Below are positions 11,155 through 24,013 of a DNA stretch of 64,000 nt, in pieces. Every line of letters starts with the position of its first letter. Position 1 is the stretch's first letter. The stretch covers positions 34,680-98,679 of the forward strand of contig SVTW01000001.1 of the NCBI GenBank assembly GCA_015063585.1, written 5' to 3'. Source of the stretch: Oscillospiraceae bacterium (GTDB taxonomy: Bacteria; Bacillota; Clostridia; Oscillospirales; CAG-272). A program made the position numbers and the translations under genes. The notes below the pieces were generated by a model. It was not told where the DNA came from, ran no database searches, and saw only the letters and a list, made by a program, of their open reading frames with translations.

Positions 11155-12251
11155 AGCAACTCCATTCCTACCGTGAATTGTTGAATATTTTCTTCAAACA
11201 CCGCGTCTAATCGGTAGTTTGAAATTTCGGGATAAATAACGCTCCCCACACCGTAGCGTTTCGATTGATAAACCTGCTGTACCGCGTCGCAAAAAGCATC
11301 CATGTCCGATGCAGGATACAAAACAGCATCTGTGCCGCCAAGCAGGTCTACCTGCCCCTTTGTGTTACTCGCCACGATGGGAAGACCGCAGGACATAGCT
11401 TCCATGACGTTGAACGGAAGCCCCTCCGATATGCTGGCGGAAAGGTAGAGATCTATCACGGAAAGATACGGTAGGATCGGCGAGCGGGCACCGCAAAGAT
11501 AAATTACATCTTTCAAACCCAGCGTTGCAATTTCCTTTTCCAGTGTCTCGCGCAATCCGCCTTCTCCAATCAACAAAAGTTGGATCGGAATACCGCGTTC
11601 CCGCAATTTCGAAACTGCGTGAATCAAAAACATTTGATTTTTTCTGCGGCTCAATTCCCCAACAAAACCGCAAACAAAAGCGGGGCCATGCCCTACAAGC
11701 GACGCGCGGAGTGTAAGATCCTTATCGGGAACTACGTCAGACAGTGTGATGCCCATACCGCGAATTGAAAAGACCCTGCCGCAACAAAGCTTGTGTTCCG
11801 TGGCAATCAGAAGATCCTCGGCGTTCATTACGGCAATTTCATCGGTTTTGCCGCGCAGGAGTGATTCACACAGCAACAAGATTCGATCCGATAGCCTTTT
11901 GGGCTTTGACGGAAAAAGATAACCGTGAACCACATTCAGGACAAAAGGACGGCGACGAAGCCCGATCATAGCCGCGCGGATCAAAAAAGCGGCAAGAGTG
12001 GTATGCAATATCACAGCATCAAACCGTTCACGCTTCAAAATGGAACGAATCCGCAAAATACTTTTCAGATTTCCAAAACTGAAAAACGATTTATGAAACG
12101 CAATTGAAAAATCAACGGCATTTCCCGTTGCCATAGTAAATACGCGATTCTTTTTACGTAGCTCCGCTATATACGGCATATGAAAATTTTTCAGATGGGA
12201 TTCGGTGGAGGCAGCGTAAAGAATTTTCTTGGATTCAAAATTCGCTGCCAT
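11151..12251 (-). CDS. glycosyltransferase family 4 (GT-B)
   Basis: ORF trimmed to [16 protein letters not shown] (ATG at 12251); C-terminal EGLPFNVMEAMSCGLPIVAS motif of GT4 enzymes. Confidence 0.85.
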   Translation of the reverse strand: MAANFESKKILYAASTESHLKNFHMPYIAELRKKNRVFTMATGNAVDFSIAFHKSFFSFGNLKSILRIRSILKRERFDAVILHTTLAAFLIRAAMIGLRRRPFVLNVVHGYLFPSKPKRLSDRILLLCESLLRGKTDEIAVMNAEDLLIATEHKLCCGRVFSIRGMGITLSDVVPDKDLTLRASLVGHGPAFVCGFVGELSRRKNQMFLIHAVSKLRERGIPIQLLLIGEGGLRETLEKEIATLGLKDVIYLCGARSPILPYLSVIDLYLSASISEGLPFNVMEAMSCGLPIVASNTKGQVDLLGGTDAVLYPASDMDAFCDAVQQVYQSKRYGVGSVIYPEISNYRLDAVFEENIQQFTVGMELL

Positions 12252-13716
12252 TTTTTTCGCCCTCCGATGCGGAATGACTTGTCCCCTGTCGGCGTGCCTT
12301 TCGTTGTTCCGCCTCGGCTTCCTTTGCCGCATACTTTTCATGACGGTTCACGGCACAAAACGGGGTGATCAGCATAATTCGAATATCGCCCCAAAACGTC
12401 CAATTTTCGATATAATTGATATCCTCATCAATGCGAGCTTGAATGGAGGTGTCGCCACGCAAGCCTTTCACTTGGGCAAGACCTGTAATTCCGGGGCGAA
12501 GCGTGTGCTTGAGCATATAAAGCGGCACTTCTTTTTTGAATTTTTCAACGTAAAAAGGAACCTCGGGACGCGGTCCCACGAGACTCATATCGCCTTTTAA
12601 TACGTTGAAAAACTGCGGAAGCTCATCGAGCGCAAATTTTCGGATAAAGGCACCGAAACGCGTTTTGCGAGGATCGTTTTCGGTTGACCAACCGGTAGTT
12701 TCCGAATCATTTACACGCATGGAACGGAACTTATACATGGTAAATTCGCGATTATTACGCCCCACGCGGGTCTGACGGAACAGGATTGGTCCCGGAGATG
12801 ACAGGCGCACACCGATCGCAGTGAACAGCATGAGGGGCAAGGTCAGAAGAATCAGAATCAAAGAACCGATCACATCGGTTATCCGTTTGAGAACACGGTT
12901 GGAAATATTATCAAGCGGTGTAGAACGAATGTCGATCAGCGGCAGATTACCAAGCTCTGTTACCTGCCGAGGCGAACGGAAATAACCGCAAATTGCAGGC
13001 ACGACCATGATCTTGATACAATTGTTGTTGCAAATTGTAATATATTTCGTGATCAAACGTTTTCGTACTGTATCAAATGCAAGCACGACCTCATCGGGGC
13101 GTAGCTCCTTGAGGAGTCGGTCAAGATCTCCCGTTGTTCCAAGATGCGGCAATCCGATCACGTTCAAATTTCCAACGTAACCGATTACCGAATAACCGAA
13201 CTGCGGGTTGTTCAATATCTCCTCCATGTACGCGTCCGCCATCTCTTGGCTGTCTGTTACAAGCAAGATATGCTTGATATTCCGTTTTCTCGCGCGTAAA
13301 CTGCGCAAAAAAGAGATCATAGCAATCTTTTTCGCCATTACAACAAGCGTTGCGAAAATAACCGTTAAAATGAGCCACGAGATATATGCGGTGGTGTTAT
13401 TTTGATGCAAGAGATAAATTACGAAGACCGAAAAAGCGGTGGTTCCCGAATTTACAAGCAAAATGCGCCCAACAAAAAACAATACGCCGCGTGTACGCAT
13501 CGGAAGATAGATGTTGTAATAATTATAAAAGAAGGAGGTGATCAGGCATAAAATGCTGATCACAAAAACAGCTCTGCCATTTCCGATTCGAAATTCGGCA
13601 GGATACATGATCTTTGTAATGAGATACGACACAAAAGCCGCAAGAAAATTGATACAGTAATCTATAAATTTATCGAGACCGGACAAAAGATACCGATAAT
13701 CCTTTTTGGAATTCAT
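12235..13716 (-). CDS. polyprenyl-phosphate sugar phosphotransferase (WbaP/CpsE-type priming enzyme)
   Basis: N-terminal TM helices plus a C-terminal bacterial sugar transferase domain ([38 protein letters not shown]). Start at 13716 follows AAAGGAGG. Confidence 0.85.
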
Positions 13717-13833
13717 CTTGTCGGATGCCTCCTTTCGCATAGTTGTTCCGCAGAATGCGTCTTTAATTATTATTCTACCATATTTTATAAAAAAATGCAA
13801 CTCATATCGAATAAAAAACGCGATTCTTTTCAT

Positions 13834-13908
13834 AAAAAAGAAAATTGCCCCGAAAGCACGCAAAGGAACCGCATTTTATCGCGGAATGCGCATCATTCGG
13901 GGCAATTT
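13834..13908 (-). terminator. rho-independent terminator downstream of prs
   Basis: 13-bp stem AAATTGCCCCGAA/TTCGGGGCAATTT with a long structured loop, followed by a T-run on the minus strand. Confidence 0.55.
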
Positions 13909-13923
13909 ATGATCTTTTAAGGA

Positions 13924-15078
13924 TTATTCTTCGTCAAAGGAGATCTTCATCTGTGCGGCAAGCTCACTGCGGTGCTTGTCCATCAAGGCCTGAATTCTCT
14001 TTACGGGATTGAGGAGCGAGCTGATAGTAGCATCGTTATTGAGCGTGTCAACCAGATATGCCACGTACTTGCACATATTAACCTCAACAAACCAAGGCTT
14101 TTGCAAAAGCTCGGGGCGGCGGTAAATCAGGTTGGTTGTGAAAACGCGATCGAAAATACCGTCCTTGAAAGCCTGATCAAACTTGTCAAAGCCATCGGTA
14201 AAGAGACCGAAGGTTGCAAAGCAGAATACACGGTTTGCGCCCTTCTCCTTGAGCTGCTTGCAAACGTCCAGCATGGATTCGCCCGAGGAGATCATGTCGT
14301 CAACCACAACAGCGTCCTTGCCATGGAGATCCTGTCCGAGATATTCGTGTGCCTCAATCGGGTTCTTACCGTTGATGACAACCGAATAATTTCTTCTCTT
14401 ATAGAACATTCCGATATCAAGACCAAGCACGGAGCTATAGTACATGCAACGGGACATTGCACCCTCATCGGGAGAAATGATTGCCATATGATCCTTATCG
14501 ATCTGAACGTCGGGAATGGCACGTACCATTGCCTTGATCATCTGGTAGGTGGGCTGAACGTTGTCAAAGCCCGAAAGCGGGATCGCATTGGAAATGCGGG
14601 AATCGTGCGCATCAAAGGTCAGAATATTGGAAACGCCCATCGAAACAAGCTCTTGGAGCATCAGCGCACAGTCAAGCGACTCACGGCTTGATCGCTTGTG
14701 CTGACGGCCCTCGTAAAGCATCGGCATGATAACCGTGATGCGGCGAGCTTTACCGCCGATTGCGGCGATGATACGCTTGAGGTCGGCATAGTGATCATCG
14801 GGACTCATCGGAACAACGTTTCCGTACATCTTGTAGGTAACACCGTAATTGAAGACATCGCAAAGAATATAAACATCCTTGCCGCGCATGGAATTGTGAA
14901 GAATTCCCTTGCCTTCTCCCGATCCGAAACGGGGACAATCTGCGATGATCGAGAAACCGTTATCCTCGCCCGCACCGCGTCTGCGCCAATCCTTCAAGTA
15001 GTTGTCAACCTGCTCCGTGAAGCGCTCACAGCCCTTCATTCCGATTACAACGAGTTCTCCGCTTTGACTGTTCTTCAT
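13924..15078 (-). CDS. prs: ribose-phosphate pyrophosphokinase family protein
   Basis: PRPP-binding VVDDMISSGESM motif and DAHD motif. Start at the ATG at 15078, 5 nt after GGAGG. Confidence 0.85.
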   Translation of the reverse strand: MKNSQSGELVVIGMKGCERFTEQVDNYLKDWRRRGAGEDNGFSIIADCPRFGSGEGKGILHNSMRGKDVYILCDVFNYGVTYKMYGNVVPMSPDDHYADLKRIIAAIGGKARRITVIMPMLYEGRQHKRSSRESLDCALMLQELVSMGVSNILTFDAHDSRISNAIPLSGFDNVQPTYQMIKAMVRAIPDVQIDKDHMAIISPDEGAMSRCMYYSSVLGLDIGMFYKRRNYSVVINGKNPIEAHEYLGQDLHGKDAVVVDDMISSGESMLDVCKQLKEKGANRVFCFATFGLFTDGFDKFDQAFKDGIFDRVFTTNLIYRRPELLQKPWFVEVNMCKYVAYLVDTLNNDATISSLLNPVKRIQALMDKHRSELAAQMKISFDEE

Positions 15079-15167
15079 AACACCCTCCAAAGTTGTATGT
15101 TTTTTCTTTTTTATATCCCCTATTACCGAATAAAGCTCCCTTTATCGGCCTGACAGGTCTTTTTTTG

Positions 15168-16640
15168 TCAGTTTAATAAACCAAAACGTTCAAAAGCCTC
15201 ATCCCATGCGGCTCGCTCGGGGGTTGGCTCATAGTGCTTCAGCGCAAAGGAATTGGAAACGATCCTGCGTGCCTCTTGCAGGTCCGCAACATCTCCGGCT
15301 GCGATCAACTGCATCATCAGGTTGCCGATTGCGGTTGCCTCCTCGGGTCCTGCGGATACGGGAATACCGCTTGCATCGGCGGTCATTTGGCTCAGGAAAT
15401 GATCCTTTGTACCACCACCTACCACGTAGATCACCTTAGCAGGCTTTCCCATCAACGCTTCAATTGATTCTGCGGTCATACGGTATTTCAACGCTAAGCT
15501 CTCGTAAATGCAACGAACGATCTCGCCCACCGTTTGGGGAACGTACTGTCCGGTTCGGCGGCAATATTCGCGAATTCGTTCAGGCATATTTCCGGGAGTA
15601 GCAAAGGATGCGTCGTCCGGATTGATAAAGGAACGAAGCGGTTGGGCTTCTCTTGCCCATGCTTCCATTTGCGCAAAGGAATAGTCCTTTCCCTCTCGCT
15701 TCCATTGGCGTCTCGACTCTTGAATGAGCCACAATCCCATAATATTTTTCAGGAATCGGATCGTTCCCATCGCACCGCCCTCATTGGTAAGATTCAAACG
15801 TTGTGATTGTTCGTTGATCAGCGGATCCCTCAGCTCGGTTCCCATCAGGGACCACGTTCCGCTGCTGATGTAAATAAAGTCTTCTTCCTCGGTCGGCACC
15901 GCAATCACCGCGCTCGCGGTATCATGCGAAGCAACCGTGATGACCTCCGCGTCGGTTTGACCGGTTTCTTCAAGAACCTGCGGCAAGAGCTTTCCAACGC
16001 GGTGACCCGGCTGAACGATCTCCCCAAACAAACGACGCGGGATGCCGAGACGTGCCAAAATCGATTCGGCATAATCACGCTCCTTCGCGTCAAGCAAAGC
16101 GCCCGTGGAAAGGATCGTATATTCATTGCACATATTTCCCGTTAGGAAATAGTTAAGCAGGTCGGGAATATTGAGCATCCGTTCGGCGCGCGCAAACACA
16201 TCGGGATCATCGCGCAGATCGGCGGCAAGCTGAAAGATTGTATTAAAATCAAGGCATTGAATACCCGCGATCTGATAAAGCTCGTCAAGTGAGAGCGTTT
16301 CATTTACATAGTCGGCAATTCCCTTTGTTCGGGTATCCCGATAATGCGTTGGGTTGGCAAGCATTCTGCCAAAGCGGTCGATCAAAGCATAGTCCACACC
16401 CCACGTGTCAATTCCGATGGAGGAGATTGCATCCCCTTCCAAAACCGTTTTGGTGATGGATTGCTTGATCTCATGAAAAATGCGGAGAATATCCCAATAC
16501 ATTCTCCCATTCACAATTACGGGATCGTTTGAAAAACGGTGATTTTCGGTAAGTGTGAGACGAGAACCGTCAAACGTTCCGACAATTCCGCGCCCGCTCG
16601 ACGCACCGAGATCGATTGCAAGCATCTTTTTGAGTGCCAT
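15168..16640 (-). CDS. rhaB: rhamnulokinase-like FGGY-family sugar kinase
   Basis: N-terminus LAIDLGASSGRGIVG...NHRFSN...GRMYWD is typical of RhaB. Start at the second ATG (16640), after GGAGG. Confidence 0.75.
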   Translation of the reverse strand: MALKKMLAIDLGASSGRGIVGTFDGSRLTLTENHRFSNDPVIVNGRMYWDILRIFHEIKQSITKTVLEGDAISSIGIDTWGVDYALIDRFGRMLANPTHYRDTRTKGIADYVNETLSLDELYQIAGIQCLDFNTIFQLAADLRDDPDVFARAERMLNIPDLLNYFLTGNMCNEYTILSTGALLDAKERDYAESILARLGIPRRLFGEIVQPGHRVGKLLPQVLEETGQTDAEVITVASHDTASAVIAVPTEEEDFIYISSGTWSLMGTELRDPLINEQSQRLNLTNEGGAMGTIRFLKNIMGLWLIQESRRQWKREGKDYSFAQMEAWAREAQPLRSFINPDDASFATPGNMPERIREYCRRTGQYVPQTVGEIVRCIYESLALKYRMTAESIEALMGKPAKVIYVVGGGTKDHFLSQMTADASGIPVSAGPEEATAIGNLMMQLIAAGDVADLQEARRIVSNSFALKHYEPTPERAAWDEAFERFGLLN

Positions 16641-16811
16641 GAAAACCTCCATTTGCAGATACTCTATACTACATTAGATTATACCATAAAGCGACAAAAA
16701 ATGTATGAATTTTTTATGAACACGCCATTCTTATTATGCACAAAAATTAATTTAAAAATCATGAAAAAAGCACAAAAATATAAAAAATAAAAGAGAAAAA
16801 GAAAAAAAGAA

Positions 16812-16840
16812 TTGACACACCTAAATTGTTATGATATAAT
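16812..16840 (+). promoter_or_regulatory. sigma-A promoter (TTGACA-17-TATAAT)
   Basis: Perfect consensus hexamers with a 17-nt spacer upstream of the phosphoesterase gene. Confidence 0.6.
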
Positions 16841-16875
16841 TTGAAATATTCTAACCTATGAAAGGGAAAAATAAT

Positions 16876-17982
16876 ATGAAAAAAATCAGAGTTTTTTGTC
16901 TTTTATTGACGCTATGCATGTTCCTGTCGTTGGCGGTAGGATGTGATTTTATCAATCTTCTCGGTAACGATTCTACCGACACAGGCACCGATGATACAAC
17001 CGAATCGGAAAGCGAATCGGATAGCGAATCGGTCGGCGATTCCGAATCGAGCTCAACAACGGAAAGCAACACGGAGGAAACAACGACCGAAAAAGATACC
17101 GAAACCGAAACCGATCCGCCGGCGGATGATGAATACCGCGTTCTCCTTACCTCTGATATGCATTACACTTCCCTCTCCTCCTATTATGGCATGGACAGAG
17201 ACGTTCGCCTGCAATATTGGGTGAACGGAATTTTGGACGAACATAAGAGAGATCCCTTTGATCTGATCATCATTCTTGGCGACATGTCGCTTGACTATTG
17301 GGGCTGGAACGGTGGTGGAAGCTATCAGCGCAACCCCTCGGTAAGTGATACACAAAAATTCATGGAAAAATATGTTTCGCAGCTTCCCCAAGATGTACCG
17401 ACGATCGTACTCCCCGGCAACCATGAGCTTTATACCAATGAAAAATGGAAGCAAATTACCGGCAACAACCGCAATGAATCCTTTGTTTTAGGTGAAAACC
17501 TCTTTGTTATGCCCGACTCGTTTAGCGGCGCAATTGATCCGGCTTACGTTGGTGGCGGAAAAAATGACAGCCCCTACAAGGCGGTGGATATGACCTTTGT
17601 TCAAGCTGAAATTGATAAGCACCCCGAATGCAAAAATATTTTCTTGATTTCTCACCATTTTGATCTTTCTAAGGAAAGCAACGAATTTAAGAATCTACTG
17701 AAAACCGAAACAAGAATCGTTGGTCTTTTCTCCGGTCATACACACAGCAATAAAGCGAAAGACCTGGGCGCGGAATATAACGGACTCCGCATTGCGCAAA
17801 CCGGTAACTTTGCCTCCTACAGTGACGAAACAGTAGCGAATTTCTCTTGGGGATACCGCGATCTACAAATCAGCGATCAGCTTATCAAATCCACCTATAT
17901 TGTTCCCGGTGATTGCTTCTATATCGTAGGCAGCAAAACCTATAAATCCACCCGCACATTCTCAAACATTGTTTTCTATTGA
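16876..17982 (+). CDS. secreted lipoprotein metallophosphoesterase
   Basis: Lipobox LAVGC, acidic S/T/D/E-rich linker, calcineurin-like motifs (DMHY, GDMS, GNHE, SHH, GHTH); an alternative start exists at 16858. Confidence 0.8.
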   Translation: MKKIRVFCLLLTLCMFLSLAVGCDFINLLGNDSTDTGTDDTTESESESDSESVGDSESSSTTESNTEETTTEKDTETETDPPADDEYRVLLTSDMHYTSLSSYYGMDRDVRLQYWVNGILDEHKRDPFDLIIILGDMSLDYWGWNGGGSYQRNPSVSDTQKFMEKYVSQLPQDVPTIVLPGNHELYTNEKWKQITGNNRNESFVLGENLFVMPDSFSGAIDPAYVGGGKNDSPYKAVDMTFVQAEIDKHPECKNIFLISHHFDLSKESNEFKNLLKTETRIVGLFSGHTHSNKAKDLGAEYNGLRIAQTGNFASYSDETVANFSWGYRDLQISDQLIKSTYIVPGDCFYIVGSKTYKSTRTFSNIVFY

Positions 17983-18015
17983 TTTTTTCGCACACAATTG
18001 CAAATAAGTTCAACG

Positions 18016-18054
18016 AAAAAATGCACGTCTTTTTGGTAGGACGTGCATTTTTTT
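18016..18054 (+). terminator. rho-independent terminator
   Basis: ATGCACGTC/GACGTGCAT stem flanked by an A-run and a 6-T run. Confidence 0.8.
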
Positions 18055-18084
18055 GAATTTTTTTATTTTTTTCTGAAAAAGGTA

Positions 18085-18113
18085 TTGCAATTTTAAAAGT
18101 TATGTGTTATAAT
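18085..18113 (+). promoter_or_regulatory. sigma-A promoter with extended -10 (TTGCAA-17-TGT-TATAAT)
   Basis: -35 at 18085-18090, TGn plus TATAAT at 18105-18113. This is the only strong promoter upstream of the repeat units and tRNA-Ser. Confidence 0.6.
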
Positions 18114-18186
18114 ATCATACGTTGCGGTGAACAGCCGCAATACAAGAAAGTTAAAAATTAGACCCTTTCAGGGTTTAATTATATAT

Positions 18187-18329
18187 GGAGAGATATCGAA
18201 GTGGGGACGTTGCCGAGCGCTGCCGGGGGCAGGTAAAGCGAGGCATAAGGAGTGGCAGCGGTCGAAATTTTGCAAGCAAGGCGAGCTAAAATTTCGGGTA
18301 CCGCAACAGGGTCATAACGGGGCGCCCCG
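18187..18329 (+). ncRNA. tRNA-Ser-derived chimeric structured RNA unit 1 (unclassified)
   Basis: tRNA nt 1-18, then a 107-nt insert (18205-18311), then tRNA nt 19-30, then the CGGGGCGCCCCG hairpin. It lacks the anticodon loop, T arm and 3' acceptor strand. Confidence 0.4.
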
Positions 18330-18375
18330 CAAGATAAATTAAAAAATTAGACTCTTTTAGAGTTTAATTATATAT

Positions 18376-18518
18376 GGAGAGATGTCGAAGTGGGGACGTT
18401 GCCGAGCGCTGCCGGGGGCAGGTAAAGCGAGGCATAAGGAGTGGCAGCGGTCGAAATTTTGCAAGCAAGGCGAGCTAAAATTTCGGGTACCGCAACAGGG
18501 TCATAACGGGGTGCCCCG
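18376..18518 (+). ncRNA. tRNA-Ser-derived chimeric structured RNA unit 2 (unclassified)
   Basis: Same architecture as unit 1; insert 18394-18500 is identical to the unit 1 insert. Confidence 0.4.
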
Positions 18519-18565
18519 CAAGATAAATTAAAAAAATTAGACTCTTTTAGAGTTTAATTATATAT

Positions 18566-18654
18566 GGAGAGATATCGAAGTGGTCATAACGGGGCTGACT
18601 CGAAATCAGTTTGTGCGCAAGCACACGAGGGTTCGAATCCCTCTCTCTCCGCCA
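18566..18654 (+). tRNA. tRNA-Ser (anticodon CGA)
   Basis: Manual cloverleaf. Acceptor GGAGAGA/TCTCTCC; anticodon stem GCTGA/TCAGT with loop CTCGAAA. Long variable arm GTGC-GCAA-GCAC; T arm GAGGG-TTCGAAT-CCCTC; encoded CCA. Confidence 0.9.
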
Positions 18655-18656
18655 AC

Positions 18657-18696
18657 AAAAAACGCACTTTTGTCTACCGACAAAGGTGCGTTTTTT
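18657..18696 (+). terminator. rho-independent terminator of the tRNA-Ser transcription unit
   Basis: 13-bp stem ACGCACTTTTGTC/GACAAAGGTGCGT followed by TTTTTT. Confidence 0.85.
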
Positions 18697-18698
18697 GA

Positions 18699-18862
18699 AT
18701 GATGTTTGCCTTCGGCAAATGATGTTGGCTCCGCCAATGATGACGGCTTCGCCTAATGATGCGTGGTTTTGCCACGTTTTGGGGCAAACATCGCATCATT
18801 GCGGAACGCAGTGGAGCAACATCATATTTGCGAAGCAAATGCATCATATCGCCGCAGGCGAT
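18699..18862. repeat. array of 7-8 mini-hairpins separated by ATGATG (first half) and CATCAT (second half) spacers
   Basis: Hairpins TTTGCC-TTCG-GCAAA, TTGGC-TCC-GCCAA, CGTGG-TTTT-CCACG, TGCG-GAA-CGCA, ATTTGC-GAA-GCAAAT and ATCGCC-GCA-GGCGAT, each flanked by the hexamer. Confidence 0.65.
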
Positions 18863-18885
18863 GCTTCATTTGACAAACACATGTT

Positions 18886-19644
18886 TTAAGGTTCATCCGA
18901 AAATAAAAAATTCAACATTCTTTCGGGAGAGTCAAAAAAATCCTTGGTTAAGAGATAGTGCTCGGTCTCGCGATAGGATACCGATTCTATGGAATGTTGA
19001 GAAATCTGATAGATCTCGGCATTCGGCATTGTCATCAGAATGGGAGAATGCGTGGAAATAATAAACTGTGAATTCTTTTCTACAAGTCGATGAATTAAAA
19101 TCATCAGTTTCATCAAACGCGCCGGCGAAAGTGCCGCCTCAGGCTCGTCGAGAATGTAAAGACCGTTTTCTCCAAAGCGGTTTTCTACAAGGGAGAGAAA
19201 GCTTTCACCGTGAGATTGCCTGTGAAGCGATACGCCACCGTAGGAATGGATGATGGGCGGTGCCGACGCGGGTATACGGTCAAGCTGATCAATATAACTT
19301 GCAACGTTATAAAAGCTCTCGGCACGCAAAAAGAAGCCGTCTCGGCTTGGTGTGATCGATCTTGCAACGGTCAGATAACGGTAAAGCTCGGAGTGGCTGC
19401 TTTCGGTTGAAAAACGGAAGTTTCGTGTTCCGCCCTCTGGATTAAAGCCCATCGCAACCGCGATCGCCTCGATCAGCGTTGATTTGCCAACTCCGTTCTC
19501 CCCCACAAAAAAGGTGATGGGAGCGTGAAAGGAGAGCTTCTCCATGCGCTCCAGATGCTTTACCACCGAAAGTGCTGAGAAATACGCGTTGGCGGGAAGC
19601 GTGCCCGACAGCGCGATATGCTTGAGATAAGGTTCTTGAAGCAT
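18886..19644 (-). CDS. AAA/ABC-like ATPase, stand-alone (COG3910-like predicted ATPase)
   Basis: Walker A GENGVGKST, Walker B YILDEPEAALS. ORF trimmed to MLQEPYLKH (ATG at 19644, GGAGG RBS). Confidence 0.8.
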   Translation of the reverse strand: MLQEPYLKHIALSGTLPANAYFSALSVVKHLERMEKLSFHAPITFFVGENGVGKSTLIEAIAVAMGFNPEGGTRNFRFSTESSHSELYRYLTVARSITPSRDGFFLRAESFYNVASYIDQLDRIPASAPPIIHSYGGVSLHRQSHGESFLSLVENRFGENGLYILDEPEAALSPARLMKLMILIHRLVEKNSQFIISTHSPILMTMPNAEIYQISQHSIESVSYRETEHYLLTKDFFDSPERMLNFLFSDEP

Positions 19645-19704
19645 GCGAGGTCCTCCAATTCTCAAAAAGGGGAAAGACGCTTGGCTCTCTCCCCTTCTCA
19701 TTTT

Positions 19705-21612
19705 TTATTCTGTCAAAGCCAAAATCAACGCGTCGCAGTCCAGCGCAAACGAATGATGGATCGGTTCCGTTCGCTCTTGAATTCCAAAGCTGTCGCGCAA
19801 TGCCATTACGCGAACGGTCTTGTTTTGCATAATGGATGCGGTTGCCATTACGTCCGACAGCAACATGCCCATTCCGCCCGAATAGATCTCCTCTTCCAAG
19901 AAGATGACGCGGCATGTCTTTTTCGGAAGGAAAGGCTCAACCTTTTTGGCAATTTCATCATATGGCTTGATTTGCTCCAACAACAAAATGCCAACCTGCA
20001 TCTGCCCTTTCAATTGCTCTGCCGCCGCCATGGCTTCCTTCACAATTCTTCCATGCGTGATGATCACAGCGTCCAATTCCTCCGGAGAATCATGGACGGC
20101 TTGGCGATAGTTGTTGCGCACACCGATCTGTGTGATCGACGCGTCTTTATAAAAGGTCTCCAAAACAGCCGGATCCTCATAACCGCTCGGGTATCGAATT
20201 GCGGTTGGAAGCTCATTTTTGAGCGCGGTTTCAAGTGAAAGACGCAATCCCGCTCGCGTAATAGGCGTATAGATGGTCAAATTGGGAATTTGCGACAAAA
20301 ATGCTACGTCAAAAATACCGTGATGCGTTGCGCCGTCCGACGCGTTGAGTCCCGCGCGGTCAATACAAAAAACAACGGGAAGCTTTTGCAACGCAACGTC
20401 GTGAATTATATTGTCATAGGCACGCTGCAAAAACGTGGAATAGATAGCTACAACAGGACGAAAACCGTTTGCCGCGAGTCCTGCCGCAAAGGTAACCGCA
20501 TGCTCCTCGGCAATTCCCACGTCAAAGAAACGGGAAGGATATGCGGCTTGGAACTTGGTCAAGCCCGTTCCGCCCGCCATCGCAGCCGTTATGGCGCAGA
20601 TCTTCTCGTTTTTAGCGGCAAGCGCGGTTAAATGCGCGCCCATTTCTGCTGAAAAAGACGGCGTGTCGGGAACGACGGTTCCCGCGGGGGCGACCCCATG
20701 GAAACGGTCGGGCGTTGCTTCCGCCGGTGCATAGCCTTTTCCCTTTTGTGTTTTCAAATGAATCACACAGCTCTGTCGGCTTGCCTTTGCCTCACGCAAC
20801 AGCAGCTCCACTGCCGCCTCGTCGTTTCCGTTTACGGGTCCGAGATAGTAAAGCCCGAGATCCTCAAAATAGTTACTTCCGTACAGCGAGGATTTGAGCG
20901 ACATCTTCAAGCGGCGCAAGCCTGACACGATCGGCTTACCGATAAGCGGAATGCGACTCAAAAAAGAATTGGTTGCGTTTTTGGTTTTAAAGTAGCCTTT
21001 TGAAGAACGCAGACGCGAAAGCGTTCTCGCAAATCTTCCGATATTTTTGGAGATCGACATTTCGTTTTCGTTCAGTATGATGATCAAACGGAGCTTTTTA
21101 CGGCAGTTGTTGATTGCCTCATGGATCATACCGCCGGTGTAGGCTCCGTCGCCCAAAACGCAGATCGTATAAGCATCTGAACCGCTGATGCGGTCTGCCT
21201 CGGCAAAGCCAAGTGCCGCGGAAAGCGACGTGGAGCTATGCCCTGTGCCAAAGCAATCGTGCTCGCTTTCGCTCCGCTTTGGAAAGCCGCTGATTCCGCC
21301 GCCTTGGCGCAACGTATCAAACGAATCGCGCCGCCCCGTGATCAATTTGTGAATATATGCTTGATGTCCCACATCAAAAATAATATGATCGTGCGGAGAG
21401 GAAAAAACACGGTGAATTGCCAAAGACAGCTCTACCACACCAAGATTGGAAGCAAGATGACCGCCGTTTTCCAAAACACGCTCGACCAAAAAAGCGCGAA
21501 TCTCCTCCGCAAGAGCCGGAAGCTCGGATGCGGGAATTGCTTTCAGATCATCCGGACTGTTCACACGAAACAGATGCGGATATTTTTCGTTTTGAAATGC
21601 TTGAGCATCCAT
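19705..21612 (-). CDS. dxs: 1-deoxy-D-xylulose-5-phosphate synthase
   Basis: 635 aa; TPP-binding GDGAYTGGM motif and GHSSTSLSAALG; full-length DXS layout. Confidence 0.92.
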   Translation of the reverse strand: MDAQAFQNEKYPHLFRVNSPDDLKAIPASELPALAEEIRAFLVERVLENGGHLASNLGVVELSLAIHRVFSSPHDHIIFDVGHQAYIHKLITGRRDSFDTLRQGGGISGFPKRSESEHDCFGTGHSSTSLSAALGFAEADRISGSDAYTICVLGDGAYTGGMIHEAINNCRKKLRLIIILNENEMSISKNIGRFARTLSRLRSSKGYFKTKNATNSFLSRIPLIGKPIVSGLRRLKMSLKSSLYGSNYFEDLGLYYLGPVNGNDEAAVELLLREAKASRQSCVIHLKTQKGKGYAPAEATPDRFHGVAPAGTVVPDTPSFSAEMGAHLTALAAKNEKICAITAAMAGGTGLTKFQAAYPSRFFDVGIAEEHAVTFAAGLAANGFRPVVAIYSTFLQRAYDNIIHDVALQKLPVVFCIDRAGLNASDGATHHGIFDVAFLSQIPNLTIYTPITRAGLRLSLETALKNELPTAIRYPSGYEDPAVLETFYKDASITQIGVRNNYRQAVHDSPEELDAVIITHGRIVKEAMAAAEQLKGQMQVGILLLEQIKPYDEIAKKVEPFLPKKTCRVIFLEEEIYSGGMGMLLSDVMATASIMQNKTVRVMALRDSFGIQERTEPIHHSFALDCDALILALTE

Positions 21613-21647
21613 TCGATGTCAGCCCCCTTCTTTTTTTCTTATCTATT

Positions 21648-21676
21648 AGTATACCACAAAAAACCGCACTTGTCAA
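21648..21676 (-). promoter_or_regulatory. sigma-A promoter for dxs (TTGACA-17-TGG-TATACT)
   Basis: The reverse complement shows TTGACA, a 17-nt spacer and an extended -10. Confidence 0.55.
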
Positions 21677-21789
21677 GGCAGGGGCGATTTTTTAAGCTTT
21701 TATTCGTTTTTTGTAAAAAAATGCGAAATCATTCGAAAAAAGGTAGGTAAATTAAAATAATTAACCGCTATTGTCTTTTAAAGTCCGCT

Positions 21790-21822
21790 TTTGACTTTCT
21801 TTGACTTTGACTTTCTTTGACT
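21790..21822. promoter_or_regulatory. two tandem CtsR operators (inverted orientation) overlapping the -35
   Basis: TTTGACT-TTC-TTTGACT occurs twice (21790-21806, 21806-21822). This is the reverse complement of the CtsR box consensus RGTCAAANANRGTCAAA. Confidence 0.75.
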
Positions 21823-21835
21823 ATCAGAGTATAAT
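21807..21835 (+). promoter_or_regulatory. sigma-A promoter of the ctsR operon (TTGACT-17-TATAAT)
   Basis: -35 at 21807-21812, -10 at 21830-21835. Confidence 0.65.
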
Positions 21836-21846
21836 GATGCCAGAAA

Positions 21847-21863
21847 GGTCAAAGAAGGTCAAA
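21847..21863 (+). promoter_or_regulatory. CtsR operator (direct orientation) downstream of the -10
   Basis: GGTCAAAGAAGGTCAAA is an exact match to the heptad direct-repeat consensus. Confidence 0.8.
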
Positions 21864-21881
21864 AAAGAAAGGAGCCCACCT

Positions 21882-22337
21882 ATGCTAGCGGATTATATTG
21901 CGAAAATAATTGAAGAAATGCTCAATGAGGGGAACGGAATTTTAGAGCTTCAACGAAATGAGATGGCAAATCGGATCGGATGTGTTCCAAGTCAGATCAG
22001 CTACGTAATCGCCTCCCGTTTCACACCCGAGCGCGGATATATGATCGAATCAAGGCGCGGCGGCGGCGGTTGTATCCGCATTGTACGCAAGCAAATGAGT
22101 CAGAATGAATACTTGATGCATTTCTTTTGCGCAATCGGCGAGAGCATTGAAGAAGGTGAGGCGATTGCGTATCTGAAAAATCTGGTCGGAAGCGGCTGCA
22201 TTGACACCACTGCCCTCCGCATGGCGCAAGCGGCACTTTCCACCTCTGCCCTCTCGGCAATTGCCCCCGAGCACCGCAGCAGAATTCGCGCTGATATTTT
22301 CAAGCAAATGATCCTTGCCCTGATGCAAAGCAAGTAA
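21882..22337 (+). CDS. ctsR: class III stress-gene transcriptional repressor CtsR
   Basis: N-terminus MLADYIAKIIEEML..., glycine-rich loop ESRRGGGGCIRI; AAAGGAG RBS; operon context with mcsA, mcsB and clpC. Confidence 0.9.
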   Translation: MLADYIAKIIEEMLNEGNGILELQRNEMANRIGCVPSQISYVIASRFTPERGYMIESRRGGGGCIRIVRKQMSQNEYLMHFFCAIGESIEEGEAIAYLKNLVGSGCIDTTALRMAQAALSTSALSAIAPEHRSRIRADIFKQMILALMQSK

Positions 22338-22454
22338 AATTTTCCACTTTTTCGTTTTTTACAGAGATTGCGACAAGTTTCGTAACCAAAAAGCGATATA
22401 ATAGAACAAAACAACGGTCGTTTCAAAAAACGGTCAAAGAAAGGATTGATTGAT

Positions 22455-22997
22455 ATGTTATGTGAAAGCTGCAAAAAAAGAACCGCAACGGTTTTTTATA
22501 ATGAAAACATCAACGGTCGCGCACGTTCCTTCTCGCTCTGCGGTGAATGTGCCGCAAAGCTTCGCGAAAAGGGTGACTTGCAGGACGTAACCTCAATGCT
22601 GGGGAGTTTTGCCGATCCCTTCAGCAACCTGCACGACAATCTGTTCGGCGGATTTTTCGGGATTCCTTCGGCAAAAATTAACTCGGTTGAGAAAAAATGC
22701 CCCGAATGCGGAGCGGGATACTCTGAGATCGCAAAAAGCGGAAAGGTAGGCTGTCCCACCTGCTACACGATCTTTCGGGACGAGCTTGCGCGTACACTCC
22801 AATCCATTCACGGAACAACACAGCACACGGGGCACGTCCCTGCCCGTCACCGCGCTAAGCAGGCGCGCGAGGAACAACTGCAAACACTTCGCGAATCCTT
22901 GCGGAATGCGATTGAAAAGGAAGACTATGAAAGTGCGGCAAAGCTTCGCGATGAAATTCGCGCTTTGAATGAAAAGAATGAAAAGGAGGGAGACTAA
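22455..22997 (+). CDS. mcsA: McsA (zinc-finger / UvrB-C motif activator of McsB)
   Basis: CxxC zinc-finger pairs and a C-terminal UVR motif (EDYESAAKLRDEIRAL); gene order. Confidence 0.85.
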   Translation: MLCESCKKRTATVFYNENINGRARSFSLCGECAAKLREKGDLQDVTSMLGSFADPFSNLHDNLFGGFFGIPSAKINSVEKKCPECGAGYSEIAKSGKVGCPTCYTIFRDELARTLQSIHGTTQHTGHVPARHRAKQAREEQLQTLRESLRNAIEKEDYESAAKLRDEIRALNEKNEKEGD

Positions 22998-22999
22998 AA

Positions 23000-24013
23000 A
23001 TGGCATGGTATAACGCAAAAGGCAACACAACCGAAACCGTGATCAGCTCACGTGTCCGTCTCGCGAGAAATATTTGCGGATATCCCTTTTCTTCCAAACT
23101 CACAGCCGATGGAGCAAACGCGATTTTGGAAAAAATTACGCCGCCTCTTGAATCCTCGGGCTTTAAAAAGATTGATTTTTCGGGGATCTCCCCTATTTTG
23201 GCAACCTCCTACGTTGAAAAGCATTACGTGAGCCCCGATTTTGCGACCAAGACGACCCCACACGCGCTTTTTTTGCAAGAAAACTCCGGAATTGCCGTGA
23301 TGGCTTGCGAGGAAGATCACCTGCGCATTCAATGCATTCTTCCGGGACTCGCTTTAGAAGACGCGTATCAGAACGCATTGCGTGCCGAAAAACGACTCGA
23401 CGAGGACTTTGATTTTGCCTACAGCGAAGAGCTCGGCTATCTCACCCACTGCCCCACCAATCTCGGGACAGGCATGCGTGCATCGGTGATGATGTTTTTG
23501 CCCGCACTCACGCGCGGCGGATATATGGAGTCCCTTGCGTCACAGCTCTCAAAAATCGGACTGACCGTGCGTGGAATATTTGGAGAAGGCAGTGGGTCCG
23601 CCGGCTGTATGTATCAGATTTCCAACCAGGTTACTCTTGGGCTGAGCGAGGAAGAAACCCTGCGAAAGCTCGCGGAGGCAATTCGTCAGATCAACGAAAG
23701 CGAGCTCCGTGCACGGCAATCGGTAACGGGAGACGCGCTCGACCGTTTGATTGACCGCATCAAGCGTGCGGAAGGCATTCTCCGCTATTCGCATATGATC
23801 TCCACCTCGGAATTTATCAAGCTCTTTGCCGACGTTCGCCTCGGCATTTCGCTGGGGGTGGTAGATGGAATCACTTATGAACAGCTCGGTCAGCTACTCG
23901 TGGAGGCAATGCCCGCCACCTTAACGCTTTCTATGGATACGCCCCCGAAAACCGAAGCGGCACGCGACAAGCTTCGTGCCCAAAAAATTCGGGAGGTCTT
24001 TGGCGGAAAATAA
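23000..24013 (+). CDS. mcsB: protein-arginine kinase McsB
   Basis: Phosphagen-kinase catalytic core (CPTNLGTGMRASVM); gene order. Confidence 0.9.
   Translation: MAWYNAKGNTTETVISSRVRLARNICGYPFSSKLTADGANAILEKITPPLESSGFKKIDFSGISPILATSYVEKHYVSPDFATKTTPHALFLQENSGIAVMACEEDHLRIQCILPGLALEDAYQNALRAEKRLDEDFDFAYSEELGYLTHCPTNLGTGMRASVMMFLPALTRGGYMESLASQLSKIGLTVRGIFGEGSGSAGCMYQISNQVTLGLSEEETLRKLAEAIRQINESELRARQSVTGDALDRLIDRIKRAEGILRYSHMISTSEFIKLFADVRLGISLGVVDGITYEQLGQLLVEAMPATLTLSMDTPPKTEAARDKLRAQKIREVFGGK

Follow-up and report, generated by a model that had tools for sequence, protein, structure and literature searches.

A dispersed structured element in tandem 5′ tRNA fragments upstream of a tRNA-Ser(CGA) gene of an Oscillospiraceae bacterium

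We found that two tandem units preceding a tRNA-Ser(CGA) gene of an Oscillospiraceae bacterium each carry a copy of a conserved, structured, non-coding element, referred to here as the motif. The locus lies in a stretch of 64,000 nucleotides (nt) that we call the window (assembly GCA_015063585.1, contig SVTW01000001.1, positions 34,680 to 98,679 of the forward strand). Each unit is built on a 5′ fragment of the tRNA, probably a displaced copy, and the motif occupies the D-loop of this fragment. The motif is ~108–115 nt long and is present in multiple copies in gut and rumen Oscillospirales and in phage contigs. Its copies share one fold, usually reside in the loops of hairpins and are frequently, but not obligatorily, associated with partial tRNAs. 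In the window, a single frame of promoter-like and terminator-like sites encloses both units and the tRNA.

The original prediction, made from the sequence of the window, treated the insert in the D-loop as anonymous sequence and as a local oddity. This view has to be given up, given that the insert belongs to a conserved, multi-copy structured element found in more than 100 Oscillospirales metagenome-assembled genome (MAG) contigs and phage contigs. The explanation that we favor, with roughly even confidence, is that a dispersed element, probably mobile and acting at the level of RNA, came to occupy a displaced 5′ fragment of the tRNA, that recombination duplicated it, and that it is transcribed together with the tRNA. 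The finding combines known kinds of phenomenon, namely a dispersed non-coding repeat and the duplication of a tRNA locus. If the family is as it appears, it would be an RNA element that abounds in the gut microbiome of humans and ruminants and in the phages there, with a clear conserved fold.

The tRNA-Ser(CGA) locus and its tandem units

ARAGORN identified only one tRNA in the entire 64-kb window, the tRNA-Ser(CGA) gene, for which the cmscan match to the Rfam tRNA model spans 18566–18651. The features of the locus, in window coordinates, are as follows.

18085–18113, + strand: promoter-like site (TTGCAA-17-TGnTATAAT), the sole such + strand site upstream of the tRNA; homologous to the promoter of the motif-less loci L167, L176 and L168.
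18121–18141, + strand: native 5′ leader hairpin, GTTGCGGTGAACAGCCGCAAT, folded and just past the presumed transcription start; the same hairpin is present in relatives.
18147–18335, + strand: tandem unit 1, with leader hairpin (18156–18180), tRNA nt 1–18 (18187–18204), the motif, tRNA nt ~18–30 (18311–18323) and fold-back (18319–18330).
18203–18310, + strand: motif copy 1, with a three-way junction, set in the D-loop of the 5′ tRNA fragment (cmsearch with covariance model R1, 107.4 bits, E = 2.6e-31).
18336–18524, + strand: tandem unit 2, built like unit 1, with tRNA nt 1–18 at 18376–18393 (A9G) and fold-back at 18508–18519 (C to T).
18392–18499, + strand: motif copy 2 (cmsearch, 107.4 bits), identical to copy 1 at 108 of 108 positions.
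18525–18565, + strand: third copy of the leader with its hairpin, directly before the intact tRNA.
18566–18654, + strand: intact tRNA-Ser with anticodon CGA (ARAGORN; Rfam tRNA model, 54.3 bits).
18656–18697, + strand: intrinsic-terminator-like hairpin (19-bp stem) followed by a T-run, a match to the terminator-like consensus.

Upstream of the tRNA, Tandem Repeats Finder (TRF) reports an array at 18153–18583 with a period of 189, 2.3 copies and 97% matches. The two full units differ at 7 of their 189 positions. The first 18 nt of the tRNA, GGAGAGATATCGAAGTGG, occur three times (at 18187, at 18376 with one mismatch and at 18566), against a chance expectation of 0.04, and the last 25 nt of the tRNA occur once. 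Both the two tandem units and the duplication of the 5′ rather than the 3′ part of the tRNA are therefore as originally predicted. So is the statement that the units cannot themselves be tRNAs, given that both stop at nt ~30, that the 3′ 25-mer is present once and that ARAGORN finds a single tRNA.

Each unit consists of a copy of the leader, tRNA nt 1–18, an insert of ~107 nt, tRNA nt ~19–30 and a GC fold-back cap. The caps are the CGGGG-YG-CCCCG hairpins that had been described in both units, and we recovered them at the positions listed. A 107-nt insertion exactly after the conserved GG of the D-loop had also been claimed; the location in the D-loop holds, but the boundary is ambiguous by 2 nt owing to shared G's.

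The promoter-like and terminator-like sites are consensus matches, predicted from sequence. They bracket a single tRNA, in agreement with the original layout, and no further + strand site of either type was found between them. Given one promoter-like site and none that is internal, the tRNA would be expressible only by read-through of both units. The arms of the native leader hairpin (ACGTTGC, CCGCAA) resemble the two ends of the motif, a likeness that may have arisen by chance or as the trace of a copy since deleted.

The covariance model found no third copy of the motif in the window. The two copies are identical, and all seven differences between the units fall in the other 81 nt: five in the leader and one each in the tRNA fragment and the fold-back. 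Such a distribution (0 of 108 versus 7 of 81) is unlikely by chance and implies either constraint or recent homogenization. Among the leader differences is a compensatory change of a C-G pair in unit 1 to a T-A pair in unit 2, in the hairpin at 18164/18172.

These differences bear on the possibility that the tandem copy was mis-joined during assembly and that there is really one unit or none. In its favor, a metagenome contig of the same species, L155, has a single unit, and another, L156, ends inside the motif, so the copy number is either polymorphic, through a true deletion by unequal crossing-over, or collapsed in short-read assemblies. However, mis-assembly would not invent seven differences that include a compensatory pair. 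Moreover, the unit in L155 joins the 5′ part of unit 1 to the 3′ part of unit 2, which is the exact chimera expected if two units collapse. Double or triple units are also found independently in L050, L054, L076, L105, L123 and L126. The distinct variants within the window suggest that the two units are real in the source genome, and we regard an assembly artefact as highly improbable.

The breakage of L156 illustrates a practical consequence, in that motif copies can break short-read assemblies. They can also be mis-called as open reading frames (ORFs). A small ORF in the window (ATG at 18185, 34 codons) was rejected as a gene, given that most relatives lack the ATG and that in L007 the conserved 3′ half follows the stop codon.

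A multi-copy family with a conserved fold

A sensitive BLASTN search with one unit found 19 places in the Vescimonas fastidiosa record pMM35_01, where the match comprises only the insert and a few flanking bases. The best of these places is intergenic and upstream of a phage major-capsid gene. With a type-1 copy, which is one closed by arms of 9–14 bp, as the query, the number of places in this record was 25. The record is chromosome-like, because it carries dnaA, gyrB and rnpA. Locus L137 (NZ_AP023416.1 263554–303668), from the V. fastidiosa record, which is labelled as a plasmid, carries dnaA, dnaN, recF, gyrB, rnpA and rpmH; several families of GTAG-type palindromes crowd the intergenic regions.

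A 22-nt pattern matched 15 loci in IMG/VR and at least 120 loci in GTDB species representatives. Nearly all of the GTDB loci belong to Oscillospiraceae, Acutalibacteraceae, Ruminococcus, Faecousia and other Clostridia MAGs from the human gut, rumen and hindgut. More than 150 copies were gathered, all by pattern-seeded scans of limited collections, and mostly on MAG or short-read contigs. Several MAGs yield at least seven loci each, and the motif has the many intergenic copies per genome that characterize a dispersed repeat.

Neither the units nor their homologues matched any Rfam 15 family at E ≤ 10. On 18114–18565, only noise below 15 bits was present, so the leader matches no family, in agreement with the original prediction, which a match would have refuted. 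BLASTN searches of INPHARED phages with a unit and with a type-1 copy gave no match. No description of the element turned up in the literature, whether searched by keyword or by sequence string.

Covariance model R1 was built from 114 distinct copies. In the 5′ domain, helix P2 consists of Watson-Crick pairs around tandem G·A pairs and has a 5-bp hairpin cap (CYGCC-NNN-GGCRG). The 3′ domain is a stack of P3 (GCGGU/ACCGC), a GGG bulge and P4, whose tip varies in length. The near-invariant, purine-rich junction strands, which are GGGGA, GAGUGGC(A)G and CAACAGG (also written GGGGA, GAGUGGCAG and CAACAGG), meet at a closing stem that is contributed by the host sequence.

In the alignment of the 114 copies, 99.2% of cells are standard pairs, and eight pairs have changed on both sides. 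There are 208 double-change cells, compared to 59.7 ± 5.7 in column shuffles and 0–23 with slid partners. On account of the seeding with an exact 22-mer, we also sought divergent members. L041:218–332 and 15 phage copies found with the 5′ pattern have P3 changed to GGGGU/ACCCC or GGGAU/AUCCC, yet retain the junction strands. Their P4 is also altered by compensation, for example to CGACGA/UCGUCG. As far as alignments can tell, a functional nucleic acid that folds would be expected to combine compensation within helices with fixed junction strands in this way.

A pseudoknot between loop and tail (CCUGU with ACAGG) was considered and rejected, given that changes in the loop are not compensated. 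A longer, rearranged variant of the motif was seen in L009:5743–5934, L015:1–88, L107, L115 and L186. In this variant, the 5′ strand of P3 directly follows GGGGAAA, and a big extra hairpin takes the place of the usual 5′ side of P3/P4. It may represent a permuted or expanded subclass.

Host hairpins and displaced tRNA fragments

A same-strand tRNA lies downstream within 400 nt of 40 of the 151 pattern-matching copies (34 tRNA-Ser(CGA), 4 tRNA-Ser(TGA) and 2 tRNA-Pro(TGG)), and the remaining copies obey no orientation rule; the motif thus does not keep a constant position and orientation upstream of one class of gene. The gap between motif and tRNA has its mode at 62–79 nt and is 66 nt in the window. 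The layout of the window recurs in ~35 genomes, and in ~25 of them the flanks are exactly those of the window, namely tRNA nt 1–18, the motif, tRNA nt ~20–30 and a short palindrome. The flanks follow the tRNA of their own genome; in L036, L054, L061 and L119 they read GGAGAAGUACUCAAGUGG / motif / UCGAAGAGGCG. In the tRNA-Pro version, the D-stem is maintained through a compensatory change.

Other tRNA-derived hosts lie downstream of intact tRNAs. In L044 and L066, the host is a 3′ partial copy, in which nt 8–18 of tRNA-Ser precede the motif and nt 20 to the CCA follow it. In L110 and L135, the motif is within a remnant of the anticodon arm of tRNA-Met. L040, L045, L093 and L103 have it in ORF-less elements of ~330 nt; the sequences flanking these elements are one inverted and one direct copy of the 3′ end of tRNA-Arg, tRNA-Gly or tRNA-Ser(GCT). 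Further copies occupy the loops of GC-rich palindromes of the REP (repetitive extragenic palindromic) type, scattered between housekeeping genes and in phage contigs.

The closing arms vary between host hairpins. The flanks of type-1 copies pair at a mean of -12.6 kcal/mol, compared to -7.6 in a control with mismatched partners that covered all copies. The only closing helix in the window is the 3-bp D-stem.

Empty and filled versions of the same host could be compared in three cases. In L137, 250 nt apart, the REP-like hairpin GGGCCGAUG-UAGG-CAUCGGCCC is empty, and GGGCCGAUGU[motif]AUCAUCGGCCC is filled. The second case is the D-arm of the tRNA-Ser 5′ fragment, which occurs with and without the motif. 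In the third, the hairpin GCAACUGUC-CAGUG-GACAGUUGC (as DNA, GCAACTGTC-CAGTG-GACAGTTGC) is empty in L041 and filled in L045 and L103, and also in L040 and L093. This habit of residing in hairpin loops raises the questions of how a 110-nt non-coding element enters them, and whether it cuts, stabilizes or marks the transcripts that carry it.

The motif also forms head-to-tail arrays with a period of 112, in L063 and, within the D-loop, in L123 and L126. The array in L063 (1150–1487, - strand) has 3.1 copies with the junction CAACAGGGGACG, begins from the 3′ arm of a hairpin and ends in a 15-nt partial copy.

A scan of metagenome contigs with the first 44 nt of the tRNA in the window found 26 loci, none of which has the motif. 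The upstream regions of these loci are of three kinds. Some are simple, with a promoter, 25–40 nt and then the tRNA. Others have 5′-fragment units that lack the motif, and others have a 5′ fragment that holds another structured insert. The promoter of the window and its first leader hairpin are also found in L167, L176 and L168; in L167 and L176, the tRNA begins 15–35 nt past this hairpin, and the window is ~380 nt longer. A 20-mer from the promoter of the window gave no match in the metagenome scan; L155 and L156 carry this 20-mer, so they are evidently outside that collection.

Two other structured inserts or units occur in tRNA-Ser 5′ fragments, in L163, L168, L173, L084 (~60–230 nt upstream of tRNA-Ser), L171, L175 and L177. 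One form is GGAGAGATAT[ATCGCCTATGGCGAT...GCGAATG]CGAAGTGG..., and another consists of tandem units with a mock anticodon arm, CTGACATCGAAATCAG, and a fold-back. Rfam gave no match for these other inserts and units.

The recurrence of the layout raises the possibility of a dedicated cis-regulatory leader of tRNA-Ser(CGA), in which the copied acceptor and D-arm strand and the motif, as an aptamer or protein site, would compete for the 3′ half of the tRNA and so tune its maturation. Such a leader would explain a position 62–79 nt upstream of tRNA-Ser on the same strand in ~35 genomes, flanks that co-vary with the local tRNA (including the compensated D-stem of the tRNA-Pro version), a unit that is always directly behind the sole strong promoter-like site, the sequestration of nt 25–30 by the fold-back and junction strands that are conserved like the cores of aptamers. 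However, the 26 loci have an identical tRNA 5′ half without the motif, relatives with the same promoter go directly to the tRNA, and most copies are away from tRNAs, in REP-like hairpins and phage operons. In addition, the copy number of the unit ranges from 1 to 3 among loci, truncated copies persist, and gene conversion between repeats ~100 nt apart can account for the matching flanks. We consider a dedicated leader improbable. The motif-less loci, the direct route to the tRNA in L167 and L176 and the heterologous 5′-fragment arrays described below point to insertion rather than to an ancient leader. A constant link to tRNA-Ser, which the original prediction had raised as a matter for comparison with relatives, is thus only partly upheld, in that the arrangement recurs, but the 26 loci lack the motif, and the tRNA fragment is one of several hairpin hosts.

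The upstream side of these tRNA genes is itself variable. In eight loci (L017, L033, L035, L079, L101, L105, L114 and L136), the motif-bearing fragment extends to the anticodon loop, and one to three more fragments of the form [leader + nt 1–37] precede the intact tRNA. Some of these fragments represent a different sequence type of tRNA-Ser, and the spacers hold paired direct repeats. The tRNA-Pro locus of L126 has the same design. In L041 and L066, a complete, imported tRNA sits within an older one, which is split at the D-loop and T-loop. The breakpoints coincide with the most conserved segments of the tRNA, being in the anticodon loop or T-loop in relatives and at nt ~30, with the fold-back, in the window. 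Judging from where they fall, either site-specific or homology-driven recombination between diverged tRNA genes would fit. In E. coli, tRNA-Ser(CGA) is dispensable, as tRNA-Ser(UGA) reads UCG, so the gene would be a tolerant site. The upstream side of tRNA-Ser(CGA) and tRNA-Pro genes thereby appears as a fast-changing pile of displaced 5′ fragments that mirrors the known duplications at 3′ attachment (att) sites.

The arrays of [leader + tRNA nt 1–37] that break in the anticodon loop (L101:3380–4100, L017, L033, L105 and L126:5730–6290) have spacers of 100–150 nt with paired direct repeats and their own promoter-like sites. They look like ORF-less cassettes of a promoter plus a tRNA 5′ half.

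In view of these arrays, the original prediction set integrase-type recombination aside too quickly: relatives have displaced 5′-fragment arrays, paired direct repeats and integrases beside the tRNA. In its strongest form, the recombination scenario would make the whole locus a scar, with remnants of the attL/attR type from integrase insertions and the motif as an attachment arm, a region bound by protein at the level of DNA. The breaks in the anticodon loop agree with this, as do the spacer repeats TTCTCGCA, TTCTCTCC and GTTTGACCAC (each present twice), the tyrosine integrase genes that abut the 3′ end of the tRNA in six relatives (L017, L033, L035, L105, L112 and L114) and the partial copies of tRNA-Met, tRNA-Gly, tRNA-Arg and tRNA-Ser(GCT) that flank other motif copies. 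By contrast, the break in the window is not in the anticodon loop, and no integrase gene or element body was found near the locus (window 12235–24013). Moreover, the helices of the motif covary, the motif occurs in REP loops and in phage intergenic gaps far from tRNAs, and 5′ fragments also occur without it. The junction between tRNA and motif in the D-loop, TCGAAGYGGGGACGTT, gave 17 matches in a scan of 2.9 million viral contigs, all of them chance matches in coding DNA, and the tRNA-linked form was accordingly not seen on viral contigs. A scar and nothing else is, in our estimation, very improbable.

Possible activity, mechanism and relation to known systems

Gene orientations were taken from crude ORF calls and from skew. 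Of the 35 copies on phage contigs, 31–32 are on the purine-rich, gene-sense strand, and one operon of L193 has a copy in each of three successive intergenic gaps. This bias and the arrangement in L193 favor action on the transcript or, alternatively, strand-specific insertion, to the extent that orientation can be read from sequence.

One way of acting on transcripts would be as a small self-cleaving ribozyme, or as a defined recognition module for an RNase, that cuts the carrier transcript, with its spread being secondary. It would separate the cistrons of phage late operons and trim the leader of the tRNA. Several properties fit: helices that covary freely around ~30 fixed junction nucleotides, an arbitrary closing stem, a distal stem of variable length, head-to-tail arrays with a period of 112 and phage copies that are nearly always sense and in intergenic gaps, with several possible per contig, preceding capsid and terminase genes and following portal genes. 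Comparable contexts are found for twister, hammerhead and HDV-like theta ribozymes. On the other hand, no ribozyme family of Rfam matched the window or the homologues, an attempt to draw HDV-like P1/P1.1 pairing by hand failed, and the pseudoknot candidate lacks covariation. The motif also has more conserved positions than most small ribozymes, and its chromosomal copies have no orientation preference. We judge this explanation to be unlikely, though well worth considering.

In size, arbitrary closing stem, conserved junctions, covarying helices, multiple copies and neighborhoods of phage genes and tRNAs, the motif resembles small ribozymes such as hammerhead, twister, pistol, hatchet and the HDV-like theta ribozymes near phage tRNAs. 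It differs in matching none of these classes in sequence or structure, and self-cleavage would be a candidate activity only. The hammerhead, twister, twister-sister, pistol, hatchet, HDV-like and glmS classes were rejected, given that there is no match to any consensus and that the check by hand for an HDV-like fold failed.

Three other identities were tried and rejected. A guide of the bridge-RNA or omega-RNA type does not fit variable positions that fail to match the flanks, and no recurring recombinase or TnpB-like gene is nearby. A type III antitoxin array would have another unit size, and a toxin gene is lacking. A group I intron in a tRNA does not fit an insert of 108 nt (rather than at least 200) in the D-loop instead of the anticodon loop, in a host copy that lacks the 3′ two-thirds.

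We return to the favored explanation, that of a dispersed element lodged in a displaced tRNA fragment. Displaced 5′ fragments would accumulate upstream of tRNA-Ser(CGA) and also tRNA-Pro genes, and would arise through recombination at conserved tRNA segments, namely the D-loop, anticodon loop and T-loop. These fragments would be dispensable hairpins behind a strong promoter-like site, in which the element could reside. The ~190-nt unit (leader, nt 1–18, motif, nt 19–30 and fold-back) would have been duplicated by re-insertion or by unequal crossing-over, the latter possibly between the repeated leader and 5′ segments. One promoter would then give rise to a single precursor of ~570 nt, which RNase P would cut at the 5′ end of the tRNA, giving the mature tRNA on the one hand and, on the other, a leader RNA in which two modules are folded. 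The GC fold-back, in which nt 25–30 pair with their complement, would keep the copied strand of the anticodon stem from disturbing the folding of the real tRNA.

What the modules themselves might do can be graded from sequence alone. A cis-acting module for RNA processing or stability, possibly self-cleaving, is a tentative first choice that falls well short of an even chance. A non-autonomous repeat that is purely selfish, and that an enzyme acting in trans spreads along with REP-type hairpins, comes a close second. We think it quite unlikely that the motif is a protein-binding small RNA, and there is at most a slim chance that it is a ligand-sensing regulator of the tRNA. A bolder idea, which we regard as rather unlikely, is that the motif would define a new class of small RNA with its own activity, as a self-cleaving or self-inserting ribozyme or as the RNA part of a mobility system, that colonizes hairpin loops and rides on tRNA promoters. 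If so, such elements would have their nurseries in the leaders of tRNA-Ser and tRNA-Pro genes of gut Clostridia, because at least two other inserts occupy the same place in relatives.

Several observations weigh against a mobile, RNA-level element that is co-transcribed with the tRNA. The chromosomal copies have no orientation bias, and in chromosomes the strand bias relative to GC skew is not significant (73:53, p = 0.09). The three comparisons of empty and filled sites reveal no clean insertion boundaries or target-site duplication. No recurring protein family or mobilizing enzyme was found beside the copies, although a genome-wide search for RAYT (the REP-associated tyrosine transposase) was not made. 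G·U cells (~11) are no more common than A·C cells (~11), so wobble asymmetry cannot separate RNA from single-stranded DNA, and tandem G·A pairs and GNRA-like loops are stable in DNA too. The family sample was seeded with exact patterns, which inflates the conservation seen in the pattern region. For co-transcription and the cut by RNase P, the basis is the sequence together with textbook knowledge. Finally, a layout that recurs in ~35 genomes with flanks matching the tRNA could reflect selection for a function tied to tRNA-Ser.

The original prediction named the rtT repeats of the E. coli tyrT locus as the closest precedent. The parallel is loose and holds only in that both loci have tandem repeats within a tRNA transcription unit (co-transcription being a prediction here), each repeat with a piece of tRNA and with no need for an ORF. 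However, the polarity is opposite: rtT repeats are downstream of the tRNA and carry a 3′ segment, whereas the units in the window are upstream and carry the 5′ segment, nt 1–30. Also, the core in the window is a separate structured element that is found far from tRNAs as well, and none of the Rfam families, among which RtT would be if it is present there, matched the units at E ≤ 10.

With duplications of tRNAs at att sites and remnants like those of cis-mobilizable elements (CIMEs), the tRNA-linked loci share direct repeats of tRNA segments beside an intact tRNA, breaks in the D-loop, anticodon loop or T-loop, arrays built by successive events and integrase genes beside some of these tRNAs. 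The fragments here differ in being mostly 5′ parts upstream of the tRNA, and the putative elements are 170–350 nt long and lack an ORF. The window differs further in its breakpoint at nt ~30 with a palindromic fold-back and in having no integrase near.

REPs, REPINs and miniature inverted-repeat transposable elements (MITEs), including the Rickettsia palindromic elements that insert into RNA genes, are likewise multi-copy, intergenic and non-coding, have palindromic arms, as type-1 copies do, and occur in chromosomes and phages. The host hairpins in V. fastidiosa even have a GTAG-type 5′ motif, as in classical REPs. By contrast, conservation here lies in what the loop contains rather than in the arms, with covariation in several helices and fixed junction strands, and no link to a transposase, terminal inverted repeats or target duplication was demonstrated. 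The intervening sequences (IVS) of 23S rRNA resemble the motif in being structured segments of ~100 nt that replace the loop of an RNA hairpin and occur sporadically among relatives. The RNA that harbors IVS is essential, and RNase III excises them; the host hairpins of the motif, however, are probably dispensable.

The genes around the locus encode a metallophosphoesterase, an AAA_21 ATPase, Dxs and CtsR/McsAB. With housekeeping genes and one AAA ATPase as neighbors, the absence of element genes in the original prediction is confirmed. The ATPase gene (18886–19701, - strand) stands alone between the tRNA and dxs and encodes a protein of 271 amino acids of the AAA_21/AAA_15 (AbiEii/OLD-like) type. 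It may be a small defense or island remnant at the 3′ side of the tRNA; a repeat of the tRNA 3′ end was not found in the window. Right after the terminator-like site, at 18698–18860, there are short GC hairpins that are each preceded by AATGATG (TRF period 18, 3.4 copies), and this region weakly resembles Rfam Gut-1 (25 bits versus a gathering score of 50).

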